Shown: positions 46,841 to 62,480 of the stretch, one piece after another
How the letters are laid out: each line of letters begins with the position of its first letter
Position numbering within the stretch: the first letter of the stretch is position 1
Notes under the pieces: model-generated
Seen by the model: only the letters and a program-made list of their open reading frames with translations
Databases searched by the model: none
What the model was told of the DNA's origin: nothing
Sequence record: NC_070982.1
Source of the DNA: Escherichia phage vB_EcoP-101114UKE3
DNA length: 64,000 nt
Direction: 5' to 3' (one strand)
Made by a program: the position numbers and the translations under genes

Positions 46841-47374
46841 TTATACACCCTTAGATGCAACTACACCATTACTGCCGTTGTATCGACCCTTCACTGCATA
46901 AGAGTCATCACCAGCGTGAGAGTGTTCGAACATAACCATTTGACCAACACGCATCCCAGCACGAACTCGTAAGCTATGATTATGGGTAACGTTATGAAAT
47001 TCAAAGGTTAGTTTACTGCTGTTAAACCCTGCATCAGCCCAACCAGCATGGAGGTGGTTTAAACCACAACGAGCCATTGAGGAGCGAAGTACAAACAGGC
47101 TTGAGATGTTATCTGGAAGGTTAAACTCTTCCATTGAGTGCGCTAAGAAGAATTGCCCCGGAGTGATAACAATACCATCTTCAGGGATTTTTACTTCTTT
47201 CCACTTGAGGTTTTCTTTAGCATCAATGTCAACAATTCCGTCAGCCTGTTCTTCAACAAGGATAGTATCACCAATACGGATATCCACGCTAGCAGCGTTA
47301 ACATATTTATGCTCCGCATCTAAAAAGCCATTATCAATAACGCTGTGTAATTCTTGAGAACCTAAAAGACTCAT
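46841..47374 (-). CDS. dcd: dCTP deaminase / dUTPase-family enzyme (177 aa)
   Basis: SSMARCGL and GWADAGFNSSKLTFEF blocks typical of the dCTP deaminase family. Confidence 0.7.
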   Translation of the reverse strand: MSLLGSQELHSVIDNGFLDAEHKYVNAASVDIRIGDTILVEEQADGIVDIDAKENLKWKEVKIPEDGIVITPGQFFLAHSMEEFNLPDNISSLFVLRSSMARCGLNHLHAGWADAGFNSSKLTFEFHNVTHNHSLRVRAGMRVGQMVMFEHSHAGDDSYAVKGRYNGSNGVVASKGV

Positions 47375-48819
47375 GAGTTTCTGTTTCCTTGTACAGATGA
47401 TGCCAAATTATTAATCATGTTACGAGCTGTTTCACGAGATAGTGTAACACCTGCTAAGTTGTTATGAAGCTCACCAGATAGCTCACGAGCAGCAGCTCGA
47501 AGTTCTGTACCAAGTGTAGTATCGGAGTGAGCCAAACCATTACGACGACTATAAGGTCGAGGAGCTTCGTTAGCGTCATTAGCCAATGATGCAAAACCAA
47601 TATGAGCAGCTTCACGAGACGCTATAGTTGACACTCGATCTTCCGTAGGGGTTGGCAAATCACCAACTTCTACACGTTCTATATCACCAGCACGTAGACC
47701 CTGAACGACTGAGCTTACTGTTTCCCATGAACGACGAGAACGCTGTAAATCACCCATTGACGGAGAAGAAGCAGGTCGAACAGTTACTCCACCTGTATCA
47801 TGAGTGACATGCCATGTACGAGTATCCATTCCAGAAGAGCGTGCACTACCAAAACTGCCAGTGAAAGTGTCACGAGGTGCCATTGTAGGAGGAACTGCGA
47901 ATCTTTCCTGTTGCCAAGAATCGCGTCTGTTAGTTCCCGGAGTCCAAGGCTGCGTGATTGCTTCAGCACCTATAGTGGTTAATCCGCTAGACCATTCTGT
48001 CTGTAGGTTAACTTCCTCGTCCAGATAACTACGACCCCTTTCCTGAGGAATGTTTAATATAGTTTCCATCATCTTCAGGGTATAATGACGACGCTGATTC
48101 TGATATAAATTTACACCAGCCATAGGTCCAACTAAATCACTAATCAGGTGAACTTCTGGCTCACCGAAAGCTCCCATTGCAAGGTGCATATATTCGGTAG
48201 AACTGCTATAAACTGCAACAGTTGCTTCAGGCCACTTCTTGTGAACATACTTCATTTCACGACCAGATACCACAGGAATGTCACGAGTGTATGACATTGC
48301 AAACAAACCTTCGTTTGACACATACATGTCATCAAGAGACATGAACCCCTGACAGATCATAGGAAAGCGACGGCTTAAAGTATCCATATCCAAAGGTAGA
48401 TTAATCATCATCTGGATTTTAACTTGATCAATCTCAATTTCCAGAATCTCTTGGAAAGTGAAAAGTGCTTCAGCGTAAGTTGTCCCACTAACAGGCTGAA
48501 CTAGGCGAGATGTAGTTTGAAGCCCTTTACTCTCTGTCCAAGACAAGAAGTTGTCAAGGAACAGTGCAGCATTCATCACGTTAGCAGGGTTGTTTTCCTG
48601 ACGGGTGTTCCAACGAAACCCTCCTTGGACTAGGAAGATATCCACATCATTCGGAGTTCGGTTCTGGAAGAACGTATCACGGATAGCACCACCTGCAATA
48701 ACAGGGTAGATACCATCAGGAACTACGTTGTCTCTGATCAGATTGCGAATCAGATCAAGCCCTACGCTGAGGGCTTCTCCTTCTTGAAGGTTTAATTCAG
48801 ACAATGGAATCTTAATCAT
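47371..48819 (-). CDS. Nucleotidyltransferase-fold protein with long S/T/R/G-rich C-terminal region (about 482 aa)
   Basis: GG-x13-DVD pattern (VIAGGAIRDTFFQNRTPNDVDIF) fits Pol-beta-type NTase; ATG at 48819 sits 2 nt after the exonuclease stop. Confidence 0.5.
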   Translation of the reverse strand: MIKIPLSELNLQEGEALSVGLDLIRNLIRDNVVPDGIYPVIAGGAIRDTFFQNRTPNDVDIFLVQGGFRWNTRQENNPANVMNAALFLDNFLSWTESKGLQTTSRLVQPVSGTTYAEALFTFQEILEIEIDQVKIQMMINLPLDMDTLSRRFPMICQGFMSLDDMYVSNEGLFAMSYTRDIPVVSGREMKYVHKKWPEATVAVYSSSTEYMHLAMGAFGEPEVHLISDLVGPMAGVNLYQNQRRHYTLKMMETILNIPQERGRSYLDEEVNLQTEWSSGLTTIGAEAITQPWTPGTNRRDSWQQERFAVPPTMAPRDTFTGSFGSARSSGMDTRTWHVTHDTGGVTVRPASSPSMGDLQRSRRSWETVSSVVQGLRAGDIERVEVGDLPTPTEDRVSTIASREAAHIGFASLANDANEAPRPYSRRNGLAHSDTTLGTELRAAARELSGELHNNLAGVTLSRETARNMINNLASSVQGNRNS

Positions 48820-48821
48820 TT

Positions 48822-49370
48822 CTACATTTTCCAATTTAGAGATGGGGGATTCTTATAATCAAATCCAGCCATTTGGCAAAGACACATGTAAACCTTAACT
48901 GTCAAGTTAACGTCTTGCTCACAATACGTGAACATGTCTTCAGTGAATGCATCCCATGCTTCTTCCTGTTCACCATAATCACCCTTCAGCTCTCCCAGAA
49001 ATTCGCCCCATTGCTTGAGGCCATGACCGCGAGGGCCATGTCTAGGGTCGCCTTTGGGGTATTCTGGACTATCACCAATACGGTCAGGCTTGAGATATCT
49101 ACTCAGGCACAAAGTATCGAAGACGTTAAAGCGAAAAGGTATCACATGAGAATAAAACTTAAACAAAGCAGGAAGGTCAAAATCAATAATATTGTGACCT
49201 ATTACTACATCAGCTTCTTTCAGTTTGTGTAGTGCTTCTTCAATTTGGTGAGGGCGATACCCCCACCGCTCTCCAGATAATACATCAAATATCCAGATAC
49301 ACCAGACATTCTGAATACCATCATAGAGATTATCACCCTCGATATCAAACGCATACAGTTTCTTTACCAC
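48822..49370 (-). CDS. DnaQ-like 3'-5' exonuclease, stand-alone proofreading domain (182 aa); GTG start
   Basis: Exo I FDIE, Exo [13 protein letters not shown], Exo III YCEQD; GTG at 49370 preceded by GGAGG. Confidence 0.65.
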
Positions 49371-51154
49371 GGACGTGCCTCCCCTTCCTGTGCAAGTAAG
49401 GAAGCTGCATCCTCTCCATTGGTAACGGTAAAAGGATGCTCTTCATCAACTTCATGATCTTCTCGTTCTACAAGACGACCTGTTTCGTTAATGTATTTGG
49501 TATAGCAAACCCCTGTCTGTCCATAGTTACGCTCTTTGAGCAGTCGTATGATTGACAAGTTTTTACCTAACCCATCCGCTTGTTTGTTACGTTCAAAACC
49601 AATAATACACTGACACCAGCGCATCAATGAACGTGAACCAGTAAACTGTACTTCTTTAACCTGACCACCTTCTTCGTGAGGTGCACCACCTGCCGGAGCG
49701 TTCAAGTGAGATAATACAAAAGCAGTGAAGTCTAATTCCTTACACATACCAGCAAGCTCTGAAGCAATCTTGCTGATTTCTGTGTTTACCTCAGATGGGG
49801 TTAAGTGAGATACCAATGCAGTGATGTTATCAAGAATGATAAATTTACACTGATTCTCAACTACCCAAAAGCGAATACACTGCTTAATGTCTTCCCACTC
49901 GTTCTGCCCAAAGTTGTCATACAAGAAAAACTTATCAGCGTATCGAAGTGCTTCATCTCGTAGCTGGCTTTCTTCGTACTCAACATCTGGTCGGTGGAAT
50001 GGAATAGATGCAGATTTACCTGCAATGTTCTTAACAGACATGCCTACCTTCTCTTCCAAGAAGAAGCCACCACCATTAAAACCATGCTCAAGGCAAAGCC
50101 ATGCTACTAGTTCGTGTGCGATTAAGGTTTTACCTGAACCAACACCACCGCCGATTGCAACCATCTCTCCCCAACGAATACCAAAGGTCATGTCGTTAAG
50201 AGTTTTCCACGGATAAGGAATACCCCATTCCGCTTTCTTCAGAGCATCTTCGAGGCAATCAAAAACTGTAACAGCTCCAGCAGGAGATTCCCGCTTAGCT
50301 GAATATTTCAGATTGTTGAAAAGCTCTTGACCTCTCCCTGCAAGTAACATGTCGTTTGCATCTTTGATTTCCTTTTCTTGTCCGTTATAAGTGAACGTAC
50401 CTTTTGGAATCCTTGCAAACTTAACATGCGGGTACAGAGAACGACCCTTAGTTAAAGCAATCTCACCTGCATCATCATTGTCCATGCAGAGTACAATCTC
50501 CTCGAAACCATTAATAAAATCACGGTTTCTTGATAATACAGAAGAGATTGAACCTGCACCGAACGGAAGAGAGACGCAAGCAGGTTTGATGTTAGTTGCG
50601 TTTGTAAACGCGGTAAGTACGTGGAACCCAGACATACAAGAGAGAGGATCTTCAAAGATGAAGAGTTTCTTGTTGTATACGTCACCACGTTGTGCTTGAG
50701 CCATACCAAACAAGTCGGCTTCTTTCACATTACCTACATAATAGAACTTCTTGCTGTCTAGAAGTTTTACTTCATATCCAACAATGTTCCCATCACGTTC
50801 ACGAGGGAAGAAGTAGCTGTCAGGAGTTTGACCATCTGTTTGGCTTAAACCGATACGGCATCCATAACGTTCAGATACAGCTTTAGGAATTAAGCGACGA
50901 GTCAACTCTCCCTGAGGAAGCTCTAAGCAATCGTCTAAGACTTCTCGGAGTTCTTCAGGGGACAGCTCTTTCTTTTCATTAGGAGTGGGCGTCGTTCCTT
51001 TCTCGAAGATTTCATACGCACCACATCTGTTACATGAACCCCACTCCTCACCGGACTCTTCATTTCGGAAGAGAATCATGTGATTGCGGGTCTTATCACG
51101 ACCATGAGAGATACACTCTTTACAGCCTGTGTCTCCCAAAATGATCTTTGACAT
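49364..51154 (-). CDS. Primase-helicase (596 aa)
   Basis: N-terminal C-x2-C...C-x2-C zinc ribbon, central primase-like region, C-terminal Walker [10 protein letters not shown]; RBS AAGGAGG. Confidence 0.8.
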
Positions 51155-51189: not shown

Positions 51190-51396
51190 TTAGTAAAACG
51201 ATCGTATTTCTTCCCACACATCATCTTGCAAGTTTCTAAAACCCTGCAAGGTTTGCTTTGTTCTGTGAATAAATTCTTCAGAGTGCTTATCAGGTGTGAG
51301 CATACTGACAAACTTTTCATAGCGATTAATCTTCCACCGCATCTTCAAGTAGTCAGATTCCAGCTTTCTTAACTTCTGCCTGTCAGTTACTGTCAT
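51190..51396 (-). CDS. Small hypothetical protein (68 aa)
   Basis: ORF-track frame 51190..51492 trimmed to the ATG at 51396. Confidence 0.35.
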   Translation of the reverse strand: MTVTDRQKLRKLESDYLKMRWKINRYEKFVSMLTPDKHSEEFIHRTKQTLQGFRNLQDDVWEEIRSFY

Positions 51397-51814
51397 CCTT
51401 CTCACCTGCCAGATATGCTGTCCAGTCACCAGATTCAACCAGAACATCTTGTTCTTCGTCGATGTGATAAATCCACGCTTCCACAGTTTCACCGCTGTCC
51501 AATAATACTGGAATCAGTGTACGCTTGTAAAAGGTGTATGGGTTATCATTACCACGATGACCTTCCAGACCGTCATACGGACCTTCCAGACCAGCTTGGG
51601 TTGTTTCAAAGACTTCTACACGAACAGGCTTACCATTGCTGTCATGCTCCAAAGATACACTTGGGAAGTATGCTGTGCAATACTGATACAGGTTACAGTT
51701 GTTTACTGTCCACCCTTCACCAATAGACACACCACCTGCACGAGCATTGATAGCGTGGTTGTGTTGACCTTTACGAAGAGAACCATACGTTGCAACTAAT
51801 ACTTTATCAGACAT
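51383..51814 (-). CDS. AIG2 / gamma-glutamyl cyclotransferase-like protein (143 aa)
   Basis: N-terminal YGSL motif (VATYGSLRKG) with downstream acidic residues; RBS AAAAGG. Confidence 0.55.
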   Translation of the reverse strand: MSDKVLVATYGSLRKGQHNHAINARAGGVSIGEGWTVNNCNLYQYCTAYFPSVSLEHDSNGKPVRVEVFETTQAGLEGPYDGLEGHRGNDNPYTFYKRTLIPVLLDSGETVEAWIYHIDEEQDVLVESGDWTAYLAGEKDDSN

Positions 51815-51818
51815 TACA

Positions 51819-52016
51819 TTACCTTTTGTTTAAAATTTCTTTTGTACAAGAAGTCCCGTTACACACGAGAACTGTTTGAGTTATAGAATCGACAACTGTT
51901 ACATGGCTGCCGCATTGAGTTATGATTTGACCTCTCCCTGAATCTTTAGAGATGCATTCATCAGCGGCGATCGCTGACACACTGAATAAGGAGAGGAAAA
52001 ATAGAATCTTTTTCAT
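51819..52016 (-). CDS. Small secreted cysteine-rich protein (65 aa)
   Basis: Signal peptide MKKILFFLSLFSVSAIA followed by about 48 residues with 4 Cys. Confidence 0.45.
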   Translation of the reverse strand: MKKILFFLSLFSVSAIAADECISKDSGRGQIITQCGSHVTVVDSITQTVLVCNGTSCTKEILNKR

Positions 52017-52022
52017 GGCTGC

Positions 52023-52439
52023 TTACCAATCATGTTGGAAACCAGAATATCCAGAGAAGATGATTGATCGGATTGGCTTTTCAGGGAATCCTTCAAAACA
52101 TCCCTTAATGGCTTTCTTGGTTTCATCAGAAATTGACTCTTTTTCACCAAACCAATATTCTTCAAAAATATCAGAGAAGATATAAGTTCGGTATCTTTCC
52201 AAGTCATAAAAACCTTCCACTGCACTTGTAACAGCTCTACTAATTACACTTGAAGCTACAGGAAATAAGTCACCGTGTTCCAGAAACAAGCACCAACGAT
52301 CAAAGAGAGGAATCTCTTCATCTTTCAGAAGACTTTCTAACTCTTCCTTTGCCTCTTTCTTGTGCTTCTCAAAGAGGTTTTTGGAATACTCTACATCTAA
52401 GATACGACTTTTAAACATATCCAGTTTATTATTAACCAT
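52023..52439 (-). CDS. Hypothetical protein (138 aa)
   Basis: RBS AGAGG. Confidence 0.45.
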   Translation of the reverse strand: MVNNKLDMFKSRILDVEYSKNLFEKHKKEAKEELESLLKDEEIPLFDRWCLFLEHGDLFPVASSVISRAVTSAVEGFYDLERYRTYIFSDIFEEYWFGEKESISDETKKAIKGCFEGFPEKPIRSIIFSGYSGFQHDW

Positions 52440-52496
52440 TTTACAACCTCTAGTTAAATTCGAACTAGCCTCCTCTTTCGAAGAGGCTAAAGCAAA

Positions 52497-52682
52497 TTAT
52501 TCTACTTCGAAGTGTTTGATCACACCAGTCAGTACATCAGATTGGAATGTACCCACTAGCTCTGTACCTCGGAAAAAGTTAACACTTGTTCCAAGTGATT
52601 CAAAGCGATCTGCTTGAATGTCCAGAGATTGAATATTTCCTTCTGCTGACATTGTACGAAACATGATTGTGTATTTATTCAC
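52497..52682 (-). CDS. Small hypothetical protein (61 aa), GTG start
   Basis: GTG at 52682 with AAGGGAG RBS, overlapping the upstream stop. Confidence 0.35.
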   Translation of the reverse strand: MNKYTIMFRTMSAEGNIQSLDIQADRFESLGTSVNFFRGTELVGTFQSDVLTGVIKHFEVE

Positions 52683-52921
52683 AGACTCGTTACTCCCTTA
52701 TCTGCTTGTGCAATTGCGATGATACGCTCAGCACATTCCATTGAATACTTATCACCTCGTTTGAGGAAGGTGATGATTGCAGAGAACTGATTACCAATCA
52801 TTCTCTTATTTGTGATACCAAACTCTTCACAGAGTTGGTTGATAGCTTTACGAGAGCCTACAATCAGAGGCTCTTTTTCTTCGGTCATTCCACGGCTGAT
52901 CAAATCTTCGATAGACAACAT
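52679..52921 (-). CDS. Small hypothetical protein (80 aa)
   Basis: ORF in the operon. Confidence 0.4.
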   Translation of the reverse strand: MLSIEDLISRGMTEEKEPLIVGSRKAINQLCEEFGITNKRMIGNQFSAIITFLKRGDKYSMECAERIIAIAQADKGVTSL

Positions 52922-52947
52922 TACAAATTCCTTTTTGTTTAATTTAA

Positions 52948-54183
52948 TTACAGAGTTACTGCTACTTCGCTACCTTCAACATTGACAGACTCTAACTTGC
53001 GAGGGTTATGAATCTGGACTGGATTGACCGGAACGTTCCAACCACTGCGGTAGAAGTTACGACCATCACAGAACAAAATGACATTGGCAGACATTGCATT
53101 CGGTTGAAGGTTGTTGTGGACGTGACGGATATCTGCAATCCAGTAACCACGAGACAAAGTGTAACCAGTAGGTGCATTACGAATAGTTTGAGTATTCATC
53201 TGACCTTCTAGCTGCATTTCTTCAGGAACTACATCTACCGAATCAACCGGCTGTGCTACTTGTCCTTCCAGTGCAAAGTTTTCATCATCAGCACTTTCAA
53301 TATCATCCACTAACTCACCGTCTCCATCTTCAATCGGAGTCTGGTAAACCACTTTATACTGAGGAGTATAGAGAGGGTTCTGAGCTTTAACAAACTCAAG
53401 AATGTTATGACGGTAGGTATCCAGAGTTGTACCAGTCAGGCCCGGTGCTGTATTAACTTCCAGTACCCACGCTTCTTGACCTTTGGTGATAATATCAACT
53501 GCACCGAAATCCAGACCCATTGATTCAACAGCTTTCACTGCATTGATCAGAGAGGCGTCATTCGGAGCATCTGTGAAGGAGCTTGAGTAAACCCAGCCAG
53601 TGTGGTGATTACGAATATCTTCACGATAGTTAGGGTCTTCGCGATAACCATTGCGACGAATCTTCTTCTGAACATAGGTGATTACACCTTTGAACACATG
53701 GACACGCCACTCACGACGTGGGCCTTGAATGCCTTTAGTGTACAGTTCAGCTCGACCAAGACCATCACCCGGTTCTACAACAACAATGCCCGAACCAGAG
53801 TGACCAGTCAGCTCATGGCGCTCATACACAATATTACCAGTGTTTGACCACTCTTGAGCAGTCTCTTGAACATCTGTGTATTCCACAGTTTTAACACCTG
53901 CTTGGTCCATCACGCTGAAAGCACGACGTTTGTTCGCTGCCATATGTAAGGCTGCGGTACGGTTAAGGACGGTTGCAGAACCAAAGAATGATTCAGGATA
54001 GCGACGGTTCCCGTAGTTAACAACCACATCACCTTCACGAGAACGCCAGCGGCTATTCTCTGAAAGAAGACCCATCACGTTAGCATTGATGCGTTCATCA
54101 CGGATAGTATCACTGATAGCAGATACTAGAGCGTTAACAGAATCAGACGGGCCATACGGAAGAACACGGATACGAGTAGTCAT
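52948..54183 (-). CDS. ATP-grasp ligase (411 aa)
   Basis: Glycine-rich GHSGSGIVVV loop and C-terminal VLEVNTAPGLTG motif typical of ATP-grasp enzymes. Confidence 0.7.
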   Translation of the reverse strand: MTTRIRVLPYGPSDSVNALVSAISDTIRDERINANVMGLLSENSRWRSREGDVVVNYGNRRYPESFFGSATVLNRTAALHMAANKRRAFSVMDQAGVKTVEYTDVQETAQEWSNTGNIVYERHELTGHSGSGIVVVEPGDGLGRAELYTKGIQGPRREWRVHVFKGVITYVQKKIRRNGYREDPNYREDIRNHHTGWVYSSSFTDAPNDASLINAVKAVESMGLDFGAVDIITKGQEAWVLEVNTAPGLTGTTLDTYRHNILEFVKAQNPLYTPQYKVVYQTPIEDGDGELVDDIESADDENFALEGQVAQPVDSVDVVPEEMQLEGQMNTQTIRNAPTGYTLSRGYWIADIRHVHNNLQPNAMSANVILFCDGRNFYRSGWNVPVNPVQIHNPRKLESVNVEGSEVAVTL

Positions 54184-54185
54184 TT

Positions 54186-54416
54186 TTAGATACCTTTTAG
54201 TTTAAGAATTTCGTTACGACAGGATTGAATTTTAGCTTCGATTGCCCAATACTCAGCGAACATTTCGTCTTCTTGGGCATCGCTTGGAGAGTCGATTAAG
54301 TTAAAAGCAAACGGATACAGCTTTCGCTGCTCCGTTACCAGTTGTTGAAGTCGGAGTTGTTGATACTCCAGCATTGTCAGGTGAGGCTTAGCTCCCTTGC
54401 TTGACATGAGGCTCAA
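54186..54416 (-). CDS. Small hypothetical protein (about 76 aa), possible TTG start
   Basis: TTG at 54416 with AAGGGG RBS; the first ATG is at 54407. Confidence 0.35.
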   Translation of the reverse strand: MSLMSSKGAKPHLTMLEYQQLRLQQLVTEQRKLYPFAFNLIDSPSDAQEDEMFAEYWAIEAKIQSCRNEILKLKGI

Positions 54417-54621
54417 CTTTAATCCCCTTCATTTTAACATAGTCAGCCAACACGTTATTGATAACGGTTGGAAAAGGGATTTCTACTGGAGAGTCAACCA
54501 GCTTCCCAATACCTTCTTGCATCCACTTCTGGATTGCTCGGAGGTTATCACATCCTGTGCTTGTCATCGGAATACGGCGGGTAGTTACCACGTTATCCAA
54601 CATCAGTTTACGAACTTCCAT
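54388..54621 (-). CDS. Small hypothetical protein (77 aa)
   Basis: RBS AAGAGG. Confidence 0.4.
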   Translation of the reverse strand: MEVRKLMLDNVVTTRRIPMTSTGCDNLRAIQKWMQEGIGKLVDSPVEIPFPTVINNVLADYVKMKGIKVEPHVKQGS

Positions 54622-54632
54622 AACTATACCTC

Positions 54633-56666
54633 TTAGTGTTTACCTTTACAGTAATCTGAATTACAGATCACCCTGTTTTCTTTGTTCAGTGAGCAAGTTT
54701 CTGCATCACGCCACGGAATTTGTTTATAACAGACTGCACAAAACCCAATTGAAGTCCAGAGGGCTTTTGTAAACTCAGCTGTTCGTTGTCCATCGTAACT
54801 GACAACTGTTTTTCGGAGAGAGGTTGACTTTTCTGGAAATGTCTCCGCTTTCTCAGCGGGTACCTCCTTTGGGGCATTCTTTGGACCATAAACAGAGATG
54901 GCATAAGTATCACCACCACGTTTTTCCAAATACGAATTAGGAACATCTGCAAGTGTGATGTCCCCTGAACGTTTTGCTGAGCTGACCATTACAATCATAC
55001 GGCTAAGCATACGTTCATCAACACGAACAGCTACTTCAGGACGACGTGGGTTGGTTGTGTCTACTGCTTTAGTCCAAATATAACCTTCAGATAGAGTAAC
55101 ATTCTTTACTTTATCTTTGATTTCTTTGGAGCAGATATAACAAACGTCTTCACCACGAAGTTTACTCATTTCGTTGTCAAACTCGAAATCAGTCTTGACT
55201 TCACCACAGATAGCACATACACCCAAAGGCACATCTTCTTCCTCTTCAGAGGTTTTAGATAACGCTTCGAAGCATTCTGGATGCCAGTATGCCTGATAAG
55301 CAAACACAGCCTTACGAGCATCTTTCCAGTCAATGTGCTTATCACAACCACCACAGTCACCATGAGAGTGAGATTCCCAGAACTTACGAGTGACTTCTAC
55401 ACCATTCTTAGTGATGAAGGAGTCCTCTGCATCAAAAGGGATATCATCATCAAAATCAGCAGTAGTGCTTTGAGGCTCCTTATCTGTAGCATCAACAAAC
55501 AGCCCTGAAGTTAGTACGAGGCGAATCATACTGTCCACTTCGGAGATACAAGCAATCGTCCCGCGATATACTACCTTTGGGTTTTCAAGAGCCTTAAGAT
55601 ATTCATCTTTGGCTACGTTGTGAACATCCCCTTCGACATACTCTTGAGCTTTATCATCGTAGATGTAACCAACCATCTTACCACGATCTGTGTTGTTATA
55701 AGCATGGAACTCGTGAGGAATAATATCCACACGACCATCACGACGATAAGGAAGACCGCGATCGGCAGCCAGTTTGTTCTGGTCTTCAATCGCTTTACGA
55801 CGACGAATGTCTCCGCTTGTCACGCCGGGCTTGTCGTCTTTGTTTCCGTAAATGTCGCTTGTGCTGCTGCTTGATTTGTTTGTCTGTTGGTTCTGATAAA
55901 GAGAGGAGTTCGAGTAATAGCCGCCCCAGCGACTCGTTACCGTAAAAACCGGAAGCGTGTGCTCCACCTCTTGAACCAGAGTCATACGACTGTTAGACAC
56001 ATCAAAGATATACTCAGTTCCCACTTTACATTCGAAGTGGTCATTGATATGGTTCTTATGGGACTTAGAACGCTCTAAAATCCACATAAGCATAGCTTCT
56101 TCAGAAGCTCCAAACCAATCCAAACCACAGCGGGCTAGGTGGAAAGGACGCTCATCATTACGGATAATGTGAAGTGTGTTGTCTTTAGCATCATGCCAAA
56201 TCAAAGTGAATGCACCATCCAGTTTTTGGATAGTCTCTGCTGCTCCAATGGTGTTAATTGAGTGGCAGATGTTTTCACTATCAACTTCGAAACGCTTACT
56301 GTCAGGAAGGAGATCTTGATCTAACAGGGTTCCATTATGAACCAGAGTAATATCCCCGTGAGTAAATGGGTGAGCATTTCGAGCATTGACAGCCCCACGA
56401 GTGGCATGTCGGCTGTGACCAACAATCCACGAAGGAGGAACTACGTAGTTCGTAAGCCCTTTGGTAATATTTGTATATTCTGTCTGGAGCATAAAAGCAT
56501 AAGAAGGAAGAGCTTCTTTATAAGAGAAGACTTGCTTTTCACCTTTACGCTGACCAAACACACCAGTTGAGTGCTGTCCACGGAAAACACCAGCATACAG
56601 AAGTTGGTTGAAAATGTCCAAATCTGCTGAGGTCATGTTGCCGCCAGCTAATACGATACCACAAAT
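54633..56666 (-). CDS. Ntn-hydrolase / class-II glutamine amidotransferase-like protein fused to a CxxC-rich C-terminal region (about 677 aa); predicted AUU start
   Basis: The frame upstream of the first ATG reads stop-K-I-CGIVLAGGNM..., giving the GAT-II N-terminal Cys; ATT at 56664-56666 has AGGTGG 8 nt upstream; RHATRG and NAHPF blocks; at least five C-x2-C pairs in the C-terminal third. Confidence 0.65.
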   Translation of the reverse strand: MCGIVLAGGNMTSADLDIFNQLLYAGVFRGQHSTGVFGQRKGEKQVFSYKEALPSYAFMLQTEYTNITKGLTNYVVPPSWIVGHSRHATRGAVNARNAHPFTHGDITLVHNGTLLDQDLLPDSKRFEVDSENICHSINTIGAAETIQKLDGAFTLIWHDAKDNTLHIIRNDERPFHLARCGLDWFGASEEAMLMWILERSKSHKNHINDHFECKVGTEYIFDVSNSRMTLVQEVEHTLPVFTVTSRWGGYYSNSSLYQNQQTNKSSSSTSDIYGNKDDKPGVTSGDIRRRKAIEDQNKLAADRGLPYRRDGRVDIIPHEFHAYNNTDRGKMVGYIYDDKAQEYVEGDVHNVAKDEYLKALENPKVVYRGTIACISEVDSMIRLVLTSGLFVDATDKEPQSTTADFDDDIPFDAEDSFITKNGVEVTRKFWESHSHGDCGGCDKHIDWKDARKAVFAYQAYWHPECFEALSKTSEEEEDVPLGVCAICGEVKTDFEFDNEMSKLRGEDVCYICSKEIKDKVKNVTLSEGYIWTKAVDTTNPRRPEVAVRVDERMLSRMIVMVSSAKRSGDITLADVPNSYLEKRGGDTYAISVYGPKNAPKEVPAEKAETFPEKSTSLRKTVVSYDGQRTAEFTKALWTSIGFCAVCYKQIPWRDAETCSLNKENRVICNSDYCKGKH

Positions 56667-56743
56667 TTTCTAATCCACCTGAAGGGTAAACCCTTTCATC
56701 TAATTAACCTTTAAATGCGCCCTGTATAAGAGCGCCCGTTGTG

Positions 56744-57844
56744 TTACAGCAGTCGTTCTAATTGCATTTCCAGATGGTCTGGAATATAACCAGTGACGTT
56801 ATCATCACTGCTACCTGATTCACGCATCAATGCAAACATGTGACGAATTTCACGAACCGTTGCGATTCGAGTGCTTTCAATCTGAGGGGTGTAGTAGGTC
56901 ATGATCTCTTCGTAGACACTGTTGGCATTACCGCGCACATATCCCAAGAAACCATAGAAGTCATTCATATCACGTAAGTTGATAAGGACTTCACCATCAG
57001 GGCCAGTCTGTTGCACACGAACACGACCAACCAAAGTTACAGATTGCTCACGACAGAAGAGAATATCACGAGCAAGACGATACCCTTCAGTGAGATCACT
57101 GTCTCTTGGAGTATAGTCTAGGGGTAGATGTTGAATCATAGGAGCGAAGCGCAGCTCATTCAACTTCTCAACATAAGCTTCATTGTCTAAATCTGCATAT
57201 TCAACAGCCAGTTTCTTGAGAACCAAGAAGCGGTTGACCAGATTCAGAAGTTGGCTCTTTTTCCACTTCGGCTCTGAGATACGGAACTCAACAGAACCAA
57301 ATTGAGATAGAGGCAAAAGATTAAGGGAGGTGTATTTATCCCAGCTATTAACAAGAGAGTGGAAGAAAGCTTCCCCGTCTCGGTTGAACGCTGACGAAGC
57401 ATTCATAACTTGTGCTTGAACGACAGCAAAAGCTGGACAGAAGTTGCTACGATAGCGATGGTATCCAGAACATTTGAACATCATCTTTTCATAGAACGTC
57501 CATCCAAGAATAACTTTCTTAAGGATATTACTATCAGCGTCACGCATATCCATATGAACGTGAGTGGAGCAGCGCCAAGTTCCCTCGGCTCCAGAATCCT
57601 GTACTGCTTCACTCAGATTGTTAATAGCACGAAGTAATTCTTCACCGTTGTAAGGTCGTGCACATACTAATTCACAACCATCACGAAGAGAGCCATCTTC
57701 AGTACAAACCCACATATCAGCGTCAATGTCAGTTGTACCTTCGACTTCTAACTCAATACCAACACCACACTGAAAAGCAATACTTGGATGCGGTTCAGAT
57801 AAGCGAGGGTTACGGTATCCAAAAACTTGTGCTACGGTTGTCAT
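56744..57844 (-). CDS. Amidoligase-like (carboxylate-amine ligase, glutamine synthetase-like fold) protein (366 aa)
   Basis: GVGIELEVEG near the N-terminus and a downstream STHVHMD motif; genomic context with GAT-II-like and AIG2-like genes. Confidence 0.45.
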   Translation of the reverse strand: MTTVAQVFGYRNPRLSEPHPSIAFQCGVGIELEVEGTTDIDADMWVCTEDGSLRDGCELVCARPYNGEELLRAINNLSEAVQDSGAEGTWRCSTHVHMDMRDADSNILKKVILGWTFYEKMMFKCSGYHRYRSNFCPAFAVVQAQVMNASSAFNRDGEAFFHSLVNSWDKYTSLNLLPLSQFGSVEFRISEPKWKKSQLLNLVNRFLVLKKLAVEYADLDNEAYVEKLNELRFAPMIQHLPLDYTPRDSDLTEGYRLARDILFCREQSVTLVGRVRVQQTGPDGEVLINLRDMNDFYGFLGYVRGNANSVYEEIMTYYTPQIESTRIATVREIRHMFALMRESGSSDDNVTGYIPDHLEMQLERLL

Positions 57845-58467
57845 AATGATTCCACCAACTCTACATTATATGATGACAGGTCTGAAGAAATATGCTTGAA
57901 CTTCTCCAGAAGGTTTAAAGATTGACGACCATTGTCGCCATAACCAGCTTCAAGAAGCACGTTTCCAACGTAAGCCCCTTTGTAATAAACTTTTCCATCG
58001 ACAGGATTGATATAGATGAAACGAGTAACCAACCCTTCAAACTCTGGATTAAACAGGTTATACACCAAATCACCCGGAATCGAACGTCCGAGAGAAGGTG
58101 GAGTACCACGAAGTTTATTCCCCATCAAGCCTTTAGCTCGCTGACGAACAGGGTTGATATGGGTCCAGCTCACCACGTTATTACCATGCTGAAGGTATCC
58201 TACATCTGGAGACTCCAGAATGAGGCTGTGATCAAACACTGGGATATTACTAACAATCTGACGTTCAAACTGACCTTCGGAGTTTTTAGTCCAGCGTTCC
58301 GCCTCAAACACTAAAGACATTTCAGCGTCGTGTGAGTAGTCGTCGATATCAAAGTTACCTTGCTGACGAACATCAAGCACATATAGAGGGAGGTTTTTAC
58401 CATCAGGTGATCGCTGAGCAATCCATGTTCCACAATAATAGTGTTGAAAATCTCTTAACAAGCTCAC
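57841..58467 (-). CDS. Hypothetical protein (208 aa), GTG start
   Basis: GTG at 58467 with AAGGTGA RBS; no early in-frame ATG. Confidence 0.45.
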   Translation of the reverse strand: MSLLRDFQHYYCGTWIAQRSPDGKNLPLYVLDVRQQGNFDIDDYSHDAEMSLVFEAERWTKNSEGQFERQIVSNIPVFDHSLILESPDVGYLQHGNNVVSWTHINPVRQRAKGLMGNKLRGTPPSLGRSIPGDLVYNLFNPEFEGLVTRFIYINPVDGKVYYKGAYVGNVLLEAGYGDNGRQSLNLLEKFKHISSDLSSYNVELVESL

Positions 58468-58476
58468 AATATCACC

Positions 58477-59283
58477 TTATACAATCTGGAGTTTAGAGGA
58501 GAATTTATCTGCTTCTTTAACATCGTTACTGTTGATGATGTTGTGAAGCTTTTCAATTGGAAGGCGAGAGTGAAGTGACATCAATACTTCCATATCACAG
58601 CCTTGAACAACCTTATCAACTTGCTCATAAACAAACTTGCGGGTTGACTTCTCGCCAATCCAGAAGTTAGAAAGAGAACGATATTCAATACCGTAATCCT
58701 TGTAACGAATGGCAGAAGCCTTTCCGTATAACTCTTTACGACGAGTGTCTTTATCCATGATTACAGCTGGCAAGGACAGGAAATAATCACACAACACACC
58801 CAACATCATTTGAGTTTGTCGAGTAATCTCTAAAGTCCCGGAGACACCAAGGTGCACATGACCCCCAGCAGTACGCAAACCCTTATTAGTTGCGACCGGT
58901 GAAGGGTTCTTTTGTCCAGTGAAGGCATTGAAATCAGGAGTACAACCAAATACAAAGGCTGACGGATGGAAAGATTCAAGCTCTTCTGAAGTGAACACAT
59001 GAGAGCTAATCCCAAGTGCTGCCTCCATGCCACGTTCATTGAGAACTTTGTTAGTCAGATCAATACCACGCTGAATGTTATCATCAAACGCTTCAAACCC
59101 TTCCTGTGGGTTAATATCAAACTCGGCCAGAACGTTGTCTTCTTGAAGACGAACATCAGGAGCCAGATCAATTTTATTGTCTTTAGAACAGCCCAGCTTA
59201 CCAGCCACAGAGGTGATAATACCGGAAGCAGTACGAACAAACATTTCAGGGTCAGAGCCAATAAGGAAAGCGCGCTTAGTCAT
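58477..59283 (-). CDS. Second amidoligase-like protein candidate (268 aa)
   Basis: ATG at 59283 with GGAG RBS; LIGSDPEMFV and GGHVHLG motifs parallel the E-rich and HVH motifs of 56744..57844. Confidence 0.35.
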   Translation of the reverse strand: MTKRAFLIGSDPEMFVRTASGIITSVAGKLGCSKDNKIDLAPDVRLQEDNVLAEFDINPQEGFEAFDDNIQRGIDLTNKVLNERGMEAALGISSHVFTSEELESFHPSAFVFGCTPDFNAFTGQKNPSPVATNKGLRTAGGHVHLGVSGTLEITRQTQMMLGVLCDYFLSLPAVIMDKDTRRKELYGKASAIRYKDYGIEYRSLSNFWIGEKSTRKFVYEQVDKVVQGCDMEVLMSLHSRLPIEKLHNIINSNDVKEADKFSSKLQIV

Positions 59284-60226
59284 TGTAATACTCCACGAGT
59301 TCATCAAAAAGGGAAACAACACGAGCACCAGCTTCTTCTGGTGTCATTGAGGAAGGTACTGCTTGCATCAGACGTTCGATAAAACTTTGAACAGTAATTC
59401 TGTCCATACGCTGATCTAATACTTCTCGCTTGTGACCTGCACAAGTTGACCAGAGACGTAACCACTCACTCATACTCTCATAATGGTCAGGGTCTTGGTC
59501 ACGACGACGTGCCATACGACGGAGAACTCCATCATTATGGTTTCGTACATAACCATCTCGGTTGTCATCAACACCGAATACATTCTGAACCCATACGTTT
59601 TCAGAAAATTCATCAGTGGTGCAAATTAATGGCAGAAATGCAATTGCACTCATGTCGCCATCAAAATAAGTCGCTGCTGACTCATCGGTTGAGTCTACGT
59701 CATTACTATAACACCAGCGACCAAAGAAGTTACGACTTAAACCAGCTAAGCGTAGAGCTAAACCGATTCGTTGTCGCTTAAGCAACTCTTCCTTGTCTTG
59801 TACGCCTTCCTGAAGGAACTCCATTCCATTAAAATCACCATCCAAATAGCTACGGATGGTCATTAGTCCAGTAAACACCTTGTCTGCTGGATGGTTTCGA
59901 AGGTTCACGGCAATAGAGTTCACCGAAGTGACAGAGAACATATCTTTATAGCAAGACATTGAGTTAAAAATGTCTGTTGCTTCAACTAAAGCTCTTTCGA
60001 TATCTTTAGCTGGTACGCCATAAAAATTGTGAGGCCAGAAGTTAATAACTTCAATTTCTGAAGTTCTGTCACGAAGGCTTGTTCGGTTACGACTTTCACC
60101 GTTAATGTCTGTAACAGAATACATGTGCATACAGTTAAAAGTACCAAAGCAAGCTCTTCCTTTGAACACTGACTCACCGAAATCCTCTGCCGGTGTTACC
60201 GGAGCAATCGATGCGGAGATTGACAT
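59276..60226 (-). CDS. Hypothetical protein (316 aa)
   Basis: RBS AGAGG; part of the operon. Confidence 0.5.
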   Translation of the reverse strand: MSISASIAPVTPAEDFGESVFKGRACFGTFNCMHMYSVTDINGESRNRTSLRDRTSEIEVINFWPHNFYGVPAKDIERALVEATDIFNSMSCYKDMFSVTSVNSIAVNLRNHPADKVFTGLMTIRSYLDGDFNGMEFLQEGVQDKEELLKRQRIGLALRLAGLSRNFFGRWCYSNDVDSTDESAATYFDGDMSAIAFLPLICTTDEFSENVWVQNVFGVDDNRDGYVRNHNDGVLRRMARRRDQDPDHYESMSEWLRLWSTCAGHKREVLDQRMDRITVQSFIERLMQAVPSSMTPEEAGARVVSLFDELVEYYND

Positions 60227-60234
60227 ATTCGCCT

Positions 60235-61452
60235 CTATTTATTAAAGAATAATTTTTCCATAATGGTTTCCCACTCTTCTGAGGGGAGGGTTGAGAACCC
60301 GTTTCCGTGAAGCCTGTTTGTCATGCAACTAATAATATTGTACATGTTGTAGCTTCGGGTGGATTCTGTTCCATTGTTCCAGTTATAACCGAAAACAATT
60401 TTATCGAAGGAGGTTTTATCCGTAGTTACTTCTCGGATGAACTCAACCAAGAGCGATTTCTCTGTGATGACCGCACGTTCACCATCTGGCAGATTACAAT
60501 ACTGAGGAAGAAGAATTGGTAAGAACATCGAATTGTTCACTCGACAATCACGAACATCTTCACTGCGATAGATTAGGCTTGAGAAGTCTTCATCACGCAG
60601 GTGTCCTTCACCTTCAGTGTATTCACACTGTCGCCATTTGGTCTGACGAGGTTCAATCATTGTACTACCAACGCCTACTGTATACAGAGACGCTTGGAAG
60701 ATACACGAGTCGTAATCATTCCCTGTTAAAGCAACTTGCTCATTGCCGAACACATCCACTGAAGAGTTAATCAGTCGGCTGAATGCAAGAGAGGCTAGTG
60801 GAGACCAACCTTTCTTATACATCTTGTTCAGCATTTCATACACAGCAGATTTTTCATCATCTGTATAGAATGTACGATTCAGCATCAGATAGAACAGAGC
60901 GCGATCAGCAGGACAACCATCAGTACAAACACCCATGAATCCTACTTCATGCCATACCAGACATGAGTCAGAATCTTTATCCATGAATGCTTCAAAGGCT
61001 TCCATTACAGCCCTGTCAGTAACATCAGGACGGTTGTTTTCTTCTGCCCATGTTTCTACATGAGAAGGAGGACGAGGGTCTCCATTCTCCACCCCTTCGC
61101 GGAAATATTGAGTGGTAATAGGCTTTTTATCACCATAACGTTTTACACCATAAGCGGGAAGGTGTGTACCAGAGTTCCAGATGTACTTAATTTCGGACAT
61201 AGGCATCATGTTTTCGAGAACGTTCTCTTCAGCAGTGCCTTGACGAACCATCATATTTTCACTCCACACCTTAATGCGGATATTCCAGCCGTAGTTGCTG
61301 TCATACGTGTTATAATAATCAGGATCACCATCTTCATCTTCATCATAATCACCACCCTGATAGTAACCTGCTTTCAGGAAACCATAACAAGGAGGCCAGA
61401 CGGTTACAACATCATCTGATTCTTTCCAGCTTTGAAGTGTTACAGGGAACAT
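60235..61452 (-). CDS. Hypothetical protein (405 aa)
   Basis: RBS AAGAGG; first large gene of the operon. Confidence 0.5.
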   Translation of the reverse strand: MFPVTLQSWKESDDVVTVWPPCYGFLKAGYYQGGDYDEDEDGDPDYYNTYDSNYGWNIRIKVWSENMMVRQGTAEENVLENMMPMSEIKYIWNSGTHLPAYGVKRYGDKKPITTQYFREGVENGDPRPPSHVETWAEENNRPDVTDRAVMEAFEAFMDKDSDSCLVWHEVGFMGVCTDGCPADRALFYLMLNRTFYTDDEKSAVYEMLNKMYKKGWSPLASLAFSRLINSSVDVFGNEQVALTGNDYDSCIFQASLYTVGVGSTMIEPRQTKWRQCEYTEGEGHLRDEDFSSLIYRSEDVRDCRVNNSMFLPILLPQYCNLPDGERAVITEKSLLVEFIREVTTDKTSFDKIVFGYNWNNGTESTRSYNMYNIISCMTNRLHGNGFSTLPSEEWETIMEKLFFNK

Positions 61453-61463
61453 CTTTTACCTCT

Positions 61464-61826
61464 TTACTCTGCTACCAAAAGGCTCAGAGATTTGCGAATG
61501 TAGTCAATACTACGGAAGTTTCGATAGTTCTCTTGGAAGCGCATTTTTTCAAACTCTGCTTCCTGAAGCTCTACCTCTGCTGCTTTATATCCTGATAAAG
61601 CTAAACTTACCACATCCTGAGGTAAGGTATTACGACGGCGAATAAGATATTTATTCGCTTTTAGTTTACCTTGTGCACGAGCCATTTTGGCCTTTGCCGC
61701 CTTGATACCATGAGAAATCCAAAGCAGTTGCTGTTTCAGATCTTCCTCATCCATACCACCTAAATCATTTGCTACTTTATGCAGCGTAGACAGGTTCACA
61801 TGGCCTTTAATGGGGCGTAGGTTCAT
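61464..61826 (-). CDS. Hypothetical coiled-coil protein (120 aa)
   Basis: Start overlaps the stop of an upstream small ORF (ATGA). Confidence 0.45.
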   Translation of the reverse strand: MNLRPIKGHVNLSTLHKVANDLGGMDEEDLKQQLLWISHGIKAAKAKMARAQGKLKANKYLIRRRNTLPQDVVSLALSGYKAAEVELQEAEFEKMRFQENYRNFRSIDYIRKSLSLLVAE

Positions 61827-61990
61827 AACTTCTCCTGTTTGTCACATTGATTGGTTAGCCAGTTGTAAGACCCACTGTTGTTCTTGCTTAACTCGCAAGA
61901 TGCAAAAGAGTACATCCTGACAAACCCCACAGTGGCTAAGCAAATAAAGATTGCTGCCAATAAGAATTTAGCTTTCAACTTATTATCCAT
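61823..61990 (-). CDS. Small membrane or secreted protein (55 aa)
   Basis: ATG at 61990 with AGAAGAGG RBS; hydrophobic N-terminus KFLLAAIFICLATVGFV; below the ORF-track cutoff. Confidence 0.35.
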   Translation of the reverse strand: MDNKLKAKFLLAAIFICLATVGFVRMYSFASCELSKNNSGSYNWLTNQCDKQEKL

Positions 61991-62231
61991 ACAACCTCTT
62001 CTTTGAGCTTAAAAAAGGACTCTCCTAAGAGAGCCAAGCTTTAAGGCCAATTAAATAGATATCACCCAATATCTGTGGATAACCTGCTCTTAAAATATTC
62101 TATCCGACGGATGTTCGAGGATTATTCCTCTCCCTAGCATCGGCCCCATACGGGAAAGATTAAATTAAGTTTAGGTTAGTTGAGCCAGAATAGCTCACAT
62201 AGCCCTCTGATACTCACAAGGGCTATAGATG

Positions 62232-62480
62232 TTACTCTGTGGCTCCGTCGAATCGGAGGATTGCTGCTGGAACAGGGTATGCTTCCAGATCTTCATCCAG
62301 TCGGTATAGATGCCCTGTACTTAAATTTACAGCTGTTACTGGCTTAGAGTGGCCTCCAGCCTGTATGGAAGGAACTCTGATAAAGAACTCTTCTGGATAT
62401 TCAACAGAGTGGAACACACTTCCTGAATAAAGATCTTTTATTTTAGAAGTTTGTTTAGGAGTTTTATCAGCAATTTTCAT
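62232..62480 (-). CDS. Hypothetical protein (82 aa)
   Basis: RBS AAAGG. Confidence 0.4.
   Translation of the reverse strand: MKIADKTPKQTSKIKDLYSGSVFHSVEYPEEFFIRVPSIQAGGHSKPVTAVNLSTGHLYRLDEDLEAYPVPAAILRFDGATE

Follow-up and report, generated by a model that had tools for sequence, protein, structure and literature searches.

A conserved podovirus enzyme cassette with predicted gamma-glutamyl chemistry in the phiEco32-like Escherichia phage vB_EcoP-101114UKE3

The gamma-glutamyl cycle of glutathione relies on a ligase of the gamma-glutamylcysteine synthetase (GCS) fold (GshA), an ATP-grasp ligase (GshB), an N-terminal nucleophile (Ntn) hydrolase (GGT) and a cyclotransferase (GGCT/ChaC). In the biosynthesis of butirosin (BtrJ, ATP-grasp; BtrG, AIG2-like) and of ergothioneine (EgtA, GCS; EgtC, a hydrolase of the class-II glutamine amidotransferase (GAT-II) type) a gamma-glutamyl group is added and then removed again by a dedicated enzyme. 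In pupylation, with its ligase PafA and deamidase Dop, an enzyme of the carboxylate-amine ligase superfamily makes gamma-glutamyl isopeptides. Here we analyse a gene cassette that contains one enzyme of each class used for glutathione, in Escherichia phage vB_EcoP-101114UKE3 (NC_070982.1; the 64,000 nucleotides analysed are referred to as the window). The cassette occupies 51383-61452 on the minus strand and encodes a COOH-NH2 ligase of type 2 (ligase-2), an Amidoligase_2 protein, an ATP-grasp ligase, a GAT-II-like Ntn protein (GAT-II), an AIG2-like gamma-glutamylamine cyclotransferase (GGACT) and three larger proteins, here called X1, X2 and X3. With moderate confidence we read it as a virus-specific multi-enzyme pathway, expressed in the middle (replication) phase, that builds and then trims a short non-ribosomal gamma-glutamyl peptide or conjugate.

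The cassette had already been described, and in a genome already deposited. The orthologous genes of phiEco32 and LUZ24 have been known from comparative genomics since 2009 (PMC4819975, PMC5498523, PMC11945000 and PMC10580990, each with a citation of Iyer 2009 or Hardies 2013). The initial annotation of the window, made from the sequence, had proposed a peptide-ligation or peptide-tagging system of a kind already noted by comparative genomics, which agrees with this literature, and its outline was correct. The 10-kb region is 100% identical to that of Escherichia phage vB_EcoP-101114BS3 (MZ234015), a phiEco32-like podovirus, and 88–99% identical to that of ∼20 other phiEco32-like podoviruses (Gordonclarkvirinae/Kuravirus); with weaker matches included, 97 phage records match it in total. 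Its genes are orthologous one for one to phiEco32 gp77-gp88 (LUZ24 gp14-gp22), with identities to phiEco32 of 63% for X3, ∼70% for Amidoligase_2 and 76% for gp79, and they stand in the same order and at the same position upstream of the primase/helicase gene; the family PF14395 is named after phiEco32. In contrast to phiEco32, this lineage carries an extra insert of two genes (a DUF7020 protein and a secreted 65-aa protein). LUZ24-type phages differ by shorter GAT-II and ATP-grasp proteins and by an ATG start. Unlike in Bas86 and SU7, the ligase-2 gene of the window has no HNH-containing intron; in Bas86-type phages this intron is spanned by a joined coding sequence (Bas86, locus L001, 10479-11787), whereas the window allele is uninterrupted.

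Comparison with the characterised systems reveals clear differences. No phage protein reaches the equivalog cut-offs, the Ntn protein is of the GAT-II type rather than a GGT, the cyclotransferase belongs to the AIG2/GGACT branch, and two ligases together with X1–X3 are without counterpart. In contrast to the butirosin and ergothioneine systems, no acyl carrier protein (ACP), pyridoxal phosphate (PLP), S-adenosylmethionine (SAM) or sulfoxide-synthase partner occurs in the cassette, and the match to EgtC is marginal (0.006). The closest characterised relatives of the ATP-grasp protein are the alpha-L-glutamate ligases RimK, MptN and CofF, which act on cofactor or protein glutamyl tails, but its match to MptN scores 36.6 bits against a cut-off of 350 bits. 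Relative to these enzymes and to the LysX-LysW system, it has an extra C-terminal domain, and the cassette lacks any LysW-like carrier whose acidic C-terminus is conserved. Pupylation differs in turn, since the cassette contains no Pup-like tag, has no link to a proteasome and uses ligases of other families (PF12224 and PF14395).

All of the minus-strand genes of the initial annotation were present at its coordinates. Intergenic spacing ranges from −20 to +26 nt except at two junctions, where the gaps measure 57 and 77 nt, and most starts are preceded by Shine-Dalgarno (SD)-like purine runs, in line with the tight packing and ribosome-binding sites it described. Profile searches upheld its five family assignments (ATP-grasp, Ntn/GAT-II, two amidoligase-like proteins and AIG2/GGCT). 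For ligase-2 the Pfam match is COOH-NH2_lig, ‘phage phiEco32-like type 2’, above the cut-off at 2e-8, alongside phrog_3815 (2e-112). Residues D11-P-E13, Q47, D49, E54, R137, H142, H144, E200 and R202 of this protein are invariant across nine lineages, and in Amidoligase_2 the invariant residues are E31, E33, E35, R54, E58, H95, H97, E186 and R188. The resulting motifs (D-P-E, Q/D/E, H-x-H and E-x-R in ligase-2; E-x-E-x-E, R/E, H-x-H and E-x-R in Amidoligase_2) are kept in the nine lineages down to 19–27% identity. We take them to be the metal, ATP and acyl-phosphate signature of carboxylate-amine ligases of the glutamine synthetase (GS)/GCS fold. The predicted catalytic residues of both carboxylate-amine ligases, and likewise those of GAT-II, are intact.

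The ATP-grasp protein scores 19.6 bits against the Pfam RimK model, 1.4 bits short of the 21-bit cut-off. The call is nevertheless secure, because the PHROG assignment, the NCBIfam matches (MptN, 2.5e-9; RimK family, 1.5e-6) and the alignment with a solved RimK in the PDB (0.0024), in which the metal-binding D..E-x-N motif is aligned, agree with one another. Its C-terminal domain of ∼130 aa is also found as a stand-alone phage protein, and phrog_20552 matches residues 336–402.

The catalytic domain of GAT-II spans its first 230 aa, and the profiles of GlmS, PurF, AsnB and EgtC align with this domain only, over ∼200 aa. The C-terminal 440 aa are variable in length among phages and comprise three Cys-rich Zn-ribbon-like modules. 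Cys1, R86, N111-G112 and D129 of GAT-II align with C1, R73, N98-G99 and D123 of GlmS. Because of this alignment GAT-II should bind glutamine or a gamma-glutamyl head group whose alpha-amino and alpha-carboxylate groups are both free. The GGACT sequence contains the motifs YGSL and E-V-F-E.

The distribution of the cassette was determined by a pattern scan of IMG/VR, in which 325 contigs carried a relative of ligase-2; the counts that follow refer to the 45 viral loci whose flanks measure 6 kb or more on either side. Genes for ligase-2, Amidoligase_2, GAT-II and ATP-grasp were each present in 45/45 loci, X3 in 42 and GGACT in 29, and the core gene order recurred in all 45. Two X genes, ligase-2, X3, Amidoligase_2, GAT-II, in places a 77-aa protein (s77), the ATP-grasp gene and, after further genes, GGACT follow each other upstream of primase/helicase in LUZ24, Aeromonas phage BUCT695, Proteus phage Privateer, Salmonella phage SE131, Vibrio phage Vp_R1 and phiEco32; a Zobellviridae vibriophage and Sinorhizobium phage phiM6 have the same genes in a partly different order. 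The window shows the conserved order of ligase-2, X3, Amidoligase_2, GAT-II, ATP-grasp and GGACT beside primase/helicase. The same order is found in unrelated phage lineages, and the arrangement is far beyond chance. Downstream of the cassette lie the genes for primase/helicase (49364-51154), a split DNA polymerase, dCTP deaminase, ThyX, PhoH and a phage sigma factor. Recurrent neighbours across loci were primase, DnaB-like helicase, DNA polymerase A, endonuclease VII and Peptidase_C26; no cell-wall enzyme and no kinase or glycosylase-like DNA-modification enzyme was among them. Peptidase_C26, a gamma-glutamyl hydrolase, occurred in 23 of 79 IMG/VR loci and also in phiM6 (locus L010, 4279-4884) and at loci L032 (5556-6278) and L106 (8630-9274), and is missing from the window phage.

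A scan of GTDB with one genome for each of ∼100,000 species returned only 22 loci, all on metagenome-assembled genomes (MAGs) or short contigs. Most of the longer contigs among these carry further cassette genes, and L032, the only one whose neighbours were scanned, lies in a viral replication module. Comparing these 22 loci with the 325 IMG/VR contigs, we conclude that the cassette is essentially restricted to viruses and travels with the replication module.

X1, X2 and X3 (405, 316 and 208 aa) correspond to the three larger unassigned proteins of the initial annotation, which were all present; rather than interleaved fillers, they proved to be conserved members of the cassette. No Pfam or NCBIfam match was obtained for X1, which by sequence (jackhmmer) was confined to Kuravirus-type phages and virus-like contigs, a larger search adding three more distant viral contigs (L043-L045). 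X2 had no match among solved structures, and BLASTP found no similarity between X1 and X2. A structure search indicated that the two upstream open reading frames (ORFs) in GAP52 and LAh_8 appear to have the X2 fold. X1 and X2 probably represent a fast-evolving, phage-only family and a paralogous pair. X3 always stands between the two ligases. It has a pair of small beta-barrels of the SH3/Tudor-like type and a basic loop, P-x-R-x-x-[KR]-[KRQ]-G, that is disordered and nearly invariant; we read it as a probable scaffold or specificity subunit. By their overlaps of 8 and 4 nt, X2 is translationally coupled to ligase-2 and X3 to Amidoligase_2.

The gene set resembles the logic of glutathione, EgtA/EgtC and BtrJ/BtrG, and we therefore propose a pathway of assembly and trimming, whose bond types, step order and acceptor we infer. 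Ligase-2 and Amidoligase_2 would each convert a carboxylate to an acyl-phosphate and couple it to an amine, and the likeliest products are bonds of the gamma-glutamyl type. The ATP-grasp enzyme may add L-glutamate or a similar residue. GAT-II, bound to glutamine or a gamma-glutamyl head group, could either supply ammonia to amidate an activated carboxylate or hydrolyse a gamma-glutamyl amide in the manner of EgtC. GGACT would release the gamma-glutamyl group from the amine as 5-oxoproline, a deprotection or recycling step like that of BtrG. X3 and the X1/X2 family would be non-catalytic or novel subunits, probably serving scaffolding or acceptor specificity. As acceptor we lean towards a small molecule or cell-wall precursor rather than a ribosomal peptide encoded in the cluster. 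Support for this scheme comes from the family assignments of the ligases, GAT-II and the ATP-grasp protein and from their catalytic residues. The invariant core and its order, the coupling of X2 and X3 to the ligases, the restriction to viruses, the kinship of the ATP-grasp protein with alpha-L-glutamate ligases, the lack of a conserved precursor or carrier among the small proteins and the middle timing of gp79 also speak for it. The recurrence of Peptidase_C26 as a third type of gamma-glutamyl-cleaving enzyme argues for gamma-glutamyl chemistry as the common theme. When a Pseudomonas aeruginosa phage carrying these genes was evolved, missense mutations arose in both the amidoligase and the GATase gene in each of two independent lines, the mutations differing between the lines (PMC11450229), which hints at relevance for fitness.

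Several observations weigh against the pathway. The literature searched contains no measured product, substrate or phenotype for any member of the cassette, and the bond types proposed derive from distant family resemblance. Neither carboxylate-amine ligase, nor GAT-II or GGACT, has a solved structure within sequence reach. GAT-II has no recognisable synthase or acceptor domain, its C-terminal 440 aa showing only the Cys-rich modules with a weak LIM match (0.0067), and it does not group with the GlmS/PurF/AsnB-type amidotransferases, in which the GAT-II domain is fused to or paired with a synthase domain. This Zn-ribbon-like half would fit binding of a macromolecule as well as of a small molecule. 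No recognisable function was found for X1, X2 or X3, so the model may lack key steps.

The peptidoglycan stem peptide contains a gamma-glutamyl bond and carboxylates that can be amidated. The ligases and GAT-II might rebuild or amidate the L-Ala-gamma-D-Glu-meso-diaminopimelate-D-Ala stem, blocking superinfection or priming lysis, which we consider unlikely. All cultured hosts are Gram-negative, and these hosts have one stem-peptide type in common. A ‘peptidoglycan modification cassette’ or ‘module’ is also what PMC5498523, PMC11945000 and PMC10580990 propose, citing Iyer 2009 or Hardies 2013. The ATP-grasp protein does show weak similarity to D-Ala-D-Ala ligase (Ddl; 5e-5), but its top matches are L-glutamate ligases. 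Moreover, the conserved core has no Mur-type ligase and no lipid-II, membrane or periplasmic component, cell-wall enzymes are absent from the recurrent neighbours, and co-expression with replication genes does not fit exclusion at an early stage or lysis at a late one (PMC8948821). Related cassettes on contigs binned as Halobacteriales, and predicted Poseidoniales viruses reported to carry just the amidoligase and GATase genes (PMC11706807), would point to hosts without murein, with weak host assignment in both cases. We discarded this archaeal occurrence as an argument, because it derives only from MAG binning and is not reliable (PMC11706807). Tagging of a host or phage protein with glutamate or a short peptide, as in pupylation with its gamma-glutamyl-epsilon-lysine bond or in RimK-type C-terminal glutamylation, with GAT-II as deamidase and GGACT clearing gamma-glutamyl-lysine, seems to us rather unlikely. 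PafA and Dop belong to the same superfamily of carboxylate-amine ligases, and gamma-glutamyl-epsilon-lysine is the canonical substrate of GGACT. Among solved structures RimK comes closest to the ATP-grasp protein, X3 exposes an invariant basic loop, and the C-terminal Zn-ribbons of GAT-II and the fast-evolving X1/X2 could recognise a macromolecule. However, no small protein of the cassette ends in a conserved Gln/Glu or offers an acceptor Lys, the near-invariant residues of the X3 loop are only Arg and Gly, and three ligases with up to three gamma-glutamyl-cleaving enzymes would exceed the needs of known tagging systems.

Strong resistance to restriction-modification has been reported for the Gordonclarkvirinae, and hypermodification of DNA or nucleotides by the cassette could account for it. 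This we hold to be highly improbable. The cassette always lies within the replication module, and in viromes genes for amidoligases and amidotransferases are found together with those for thymidine hypermodification (PMC8989533). Palindromes of 6 bp are depleted in the window (607 observed against 1075 expected), 11 palindromes are absent and CCWGG occurs once. Because the window retains 28 EcoRV and 11 EcoRI sites (and 7 EcoKI sites), avoidance of sites is not enough to account for the resistance of the subfamily; the avoidance of palindromes and CCWGG does, on the other hand, reveal another anti-restriction strategy at work. The scanned proteins offered no route to 5-hydroxymethyl-deoxyuridine or 5-hydroxymethyl-deoxycytidine, ThyX and dCTP deaminase being present but not a hydroxymethylase, and none is annotated in Bas86. 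The marks of thymidine or cytidine hypermodification (hydroxymethylase, 5-HMUDK kinase, aGPT-Pplase) were not found in the cassette or its recurrent neighbours, nor was any kinase or glycosylase-like family. Furthermore, DNA of a LUZ24-like phage with the cassette was cut by 11 of 16 restriction enzymes (PMC11945000). Improbable as well, in our view, is a broader version, in which the product of the cassette underlies the near-blindness of Gordonclarkvirinae to restriction-modification and other defences, either by a gamma-glutamyl modification of DNA or nucleotides that bypasses the 5-hydroxymethyl route or by a metabolite or protein modification that disables host nucleases, gated by the structured RNA and terminator described below. 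As a separate observation, a 487-aa protein at 47371-48834 (minus strand), between the polymerase exonuclease subunit and dCTP deaminase, is annotated as ‘nucleotidyltransferase’ in Bas86 and has no Pfam match; the BASEL authors raised a possible link of this protein to DNA modification.

The initial annotation had further suggested that the small ORFs, at least six with one of them secreted and Cys-rich, might be substrates or precursor peptides. Six ORFs of 61–138 aa were indeed present, the 65-aa one having a Sec-type signal and four Cys, but a role as substrate or carrier was rejected. One is the orthologue of phiEco32 gp79, two belong to the lineage-specific insert, and the rest have no conserved acceptor residue or C-terminus. 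The gp79 protein displaces region 4 of host sigma70 (and displaces sigmaS) and co-activates the phage sigma factor gp36 (PMC12276001, PMC8948821); its orthologue is not part of the cassette chemistry. The 620-bp insert is missing at the same junction in Bas86, SU7-type phages and phiEco32, and several related phages cover just 94% of the query. The invariant residues of s77, which is present in 21 of the 45 viral loci and has a variable C-terminus, are R15, P18, D25, P49, P51 and I54. In the positional equivalents of s61 the last residue is K in BUCT695, K in Privateer and V in SE131. Given the kinds of residue that are invariant in s77 and the varying C-termini of s61, gp78 and their equivalents (E, E, K, K, V), the idea of a precursor or carrier is unsupported, and no conserved one with a fixed acceptor residue was found among the small proteins of the cassette. 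Likewise, the ATP-grasp protein did not classify with the MvdD-type enzymes of ribosomally synthesized and post-translationally modified peptides (MvdD match, 0.095), there being no adjacent small precursor with a conserved acceptor, and a Pup- or LysW-like tag was not recovered.

The start of the Ntn protein at 56666 was confirmed and is unusual. It is an ATT located 8 nt past AGGTGG, giving the product M-CGIVLAGG; no other start is possible because a TAG stop lies two codons upstream. GAT-II thus keeps Cys1 only by way of this conserved ATT codon, whereas other lineages have ATG-TGT (MCG...) at the homologous position. The 30 nt ahead of the ATT are identical in phiEco32, and the ∼60-nt element of hairpin, SD and ATT (56650-56743 in the window) is near-identical in the distant Aeromonas phage BUCT695 (locus L005, 9340-9400). 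The exact SD-ATT-TGT string had five matches in IMG/VR, only on contigs of Kuravirus size. Homing-endonuclease (HNH) genes or remnants occupy the same amidoligase/GAT-II junction in BUCT695 (L005, 9125-9330) and UFV-P2 (PMC3890496); this junction and the ligase-2 gene are hot spots for homing endonucleases. Conservation of the leader could therefore reflect co-conversion during homing, or else translational control.

Beyond the upstream end of the cassette we identified a conserved structured RNA of ∼240 nt that ends in an intrinsic terminator. It is ∼92% identical to its phiEco32 counterpart (locus L011, 4251-4478), compared with 55–80% for the flanking proteins, and is also found in SE131-type phages (locus L007, 3428-3650); related genomes have a second copy, lacking the terminator, ∼5.6 kb further upstream (locus L121, ∼8040-8300). 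The fold comprises 60 pairs, of which 9 show compensatory changes, with 99% of cells paired; 0/500 shuffles reach it, and slid controls gave 0–2. The RNA begins directly after the stop codon of an early gene, and its U-run ends ∼20 nt before the next start, the ATG of a 55-aa ORF. Rfam contained no family for the window, the GAT-II leader or this RNA. The RNA might mark a regulated boundary between early and middle genes, in the manner of an attenuator, antiterminator or riboswitch-like element, or be a small RNA derived from a 3′ untranslated region. Its recognition, with the terminator, as the upstream boundary of the transcription unit that contains the cassette is novel in this analysis.

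The packed run of minus-strand genes described by the initial annotation thus stands, but not as a self-contained operon: the cassette has no conserved internal promoter of the gp36 type and is part of a long leftward transcription unit that begins at the structured RNA and terminator (∼62236-61996). Sigma70-like promoters within the cluster were not in excess (21 found against 25 expected). A candidate internal middle promoter of the gp36 type, TAATGTAGA with one mismatch, 16 nt before the amidoligase ATG, was rejected and is not conserved in phiEco32. Because the terminator U-run lies so close to the next start codon, read-through should be needed to transcribe the cassette and the gp79 orthologue. 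This fits gp79 being a ‘middle’ gene without a mapped gp36 promoter. In phiEco32 gp79 is a middle-gene product (PMC8948821), and of the early or middle expression initially proposed, middle timing is consistent with this. The coordinates of all features are collected in Table 1.

Table 1. Features of the cassette and its borders in the window, listed by position.
Feature	Position	Strand	Match or remark
gp76 orthologue, 68 aa	51190..51396	-	last small gene ahead of primase/helicase (49364-51154)
AIG2/GGACT-like gamma-glutamyl(amine) cyclotransferase (gp77)	51383..51814	-	PF06094 8.9e-16; phrog_2520 4e-41
Accessory two-gene insert	51819..52439	-	DUF7020 protein 52023-52439 (PF22885 1.4e-19); secreted 65-aa 4-Cys protein 51819-52016
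s61, gp78 orthologue	52497..52682	-	s61 and gp78 both end in Glu
phiEco32 gp79 orthologue, 80 aa	52679..52921	-	76% identity over 80 aa; between ATP-grasp and GGACT genes
RimK/MptN-type ATP-grasp ligase (gp80)	52948..54183	-	phrog_2599 (‘S6 glutaminyl transferase’) 9e-170
s73, 73-aa helical small protein (gp81)	54186..54407	-	position kept, sequence not
s77, 77 aa (gp82; LUZ24 gp20)	54388..54621	-	follows GAT-II in many lineages; Grimontviridae phmmer 1e-11 to 1e-17
Class-II (Ntn) glutamine amidotransferase-like protein (GAT-II), 677 aa, ATT start	54633..56666	-	GATase_6 2.6e-14
77-nt spacer with hairpin GAAAGGGTTTACCCTTC abutting SD AGGTGG, then GAT-II ATT start	56667..56743	-	fold prediction
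Amidoligase_2 (GS/GCS-like carboxylate-amine ligase), phiEco32 gp84 orthologue	56744..57844	-	PF12224 3e-8; phrog_7469 4e-142
X3, 208 aa (gp85)	57841..58467	-	always between two ligases; 4-nt overlap with amidoligase start
Ligase-2, COOH-NH2 ligase type 2 (GCS/GS-like carboxylate-amine ligase), phiEco32 gp86 orthologue	58477..59283	-	PF14395 2e-8
X2, 316 aa, phage-only family	59276..60226	-	stop overlaps ligase-2 start by 8 nt
X1, 405 aa, phiEco32 gp88 orthologue	60235..61452	-	phrog_13063 8e-195
120-aa protein at phiEco32 gp89 position	61464..61826	-	phrog_11370 8e-60; 4-nt overlap with upstream gene
55-aa hydrophobic small protein at phiEco32 gp90 position	61823..61990	-	first gene past terminator
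Conserved structured RNA ending in intrinsic terminator	61996..62236	-	8 helices; terminator stem 62035-62018 and U-run

With ligase-2 relatives on hundreds of IMG/VR contigs, the cassette ranks among the most widespread of the conserved podovirus enzyme modules that await a function. Its carriers include therapy-relevant Pseudomonas LUZ24-like phages, Kuraviruses of E. coli, and phages that infect Vibrio, Aeromonas, Salmonella, Proteus or marine bacteria. Both the ATT start of GAT-II and the upstream RNA with its terminator merit separate follow-up. The biochemistry has now become tractable, as Kuraviruses that infect E. coli K-12 exist (BASEL Bas86-94). Solving the cassette would define a virus-specific branch of gamma-glutamyl or amide-bond biochemistry and settle the peptidoglycan hypothesis that has stood since 2009.

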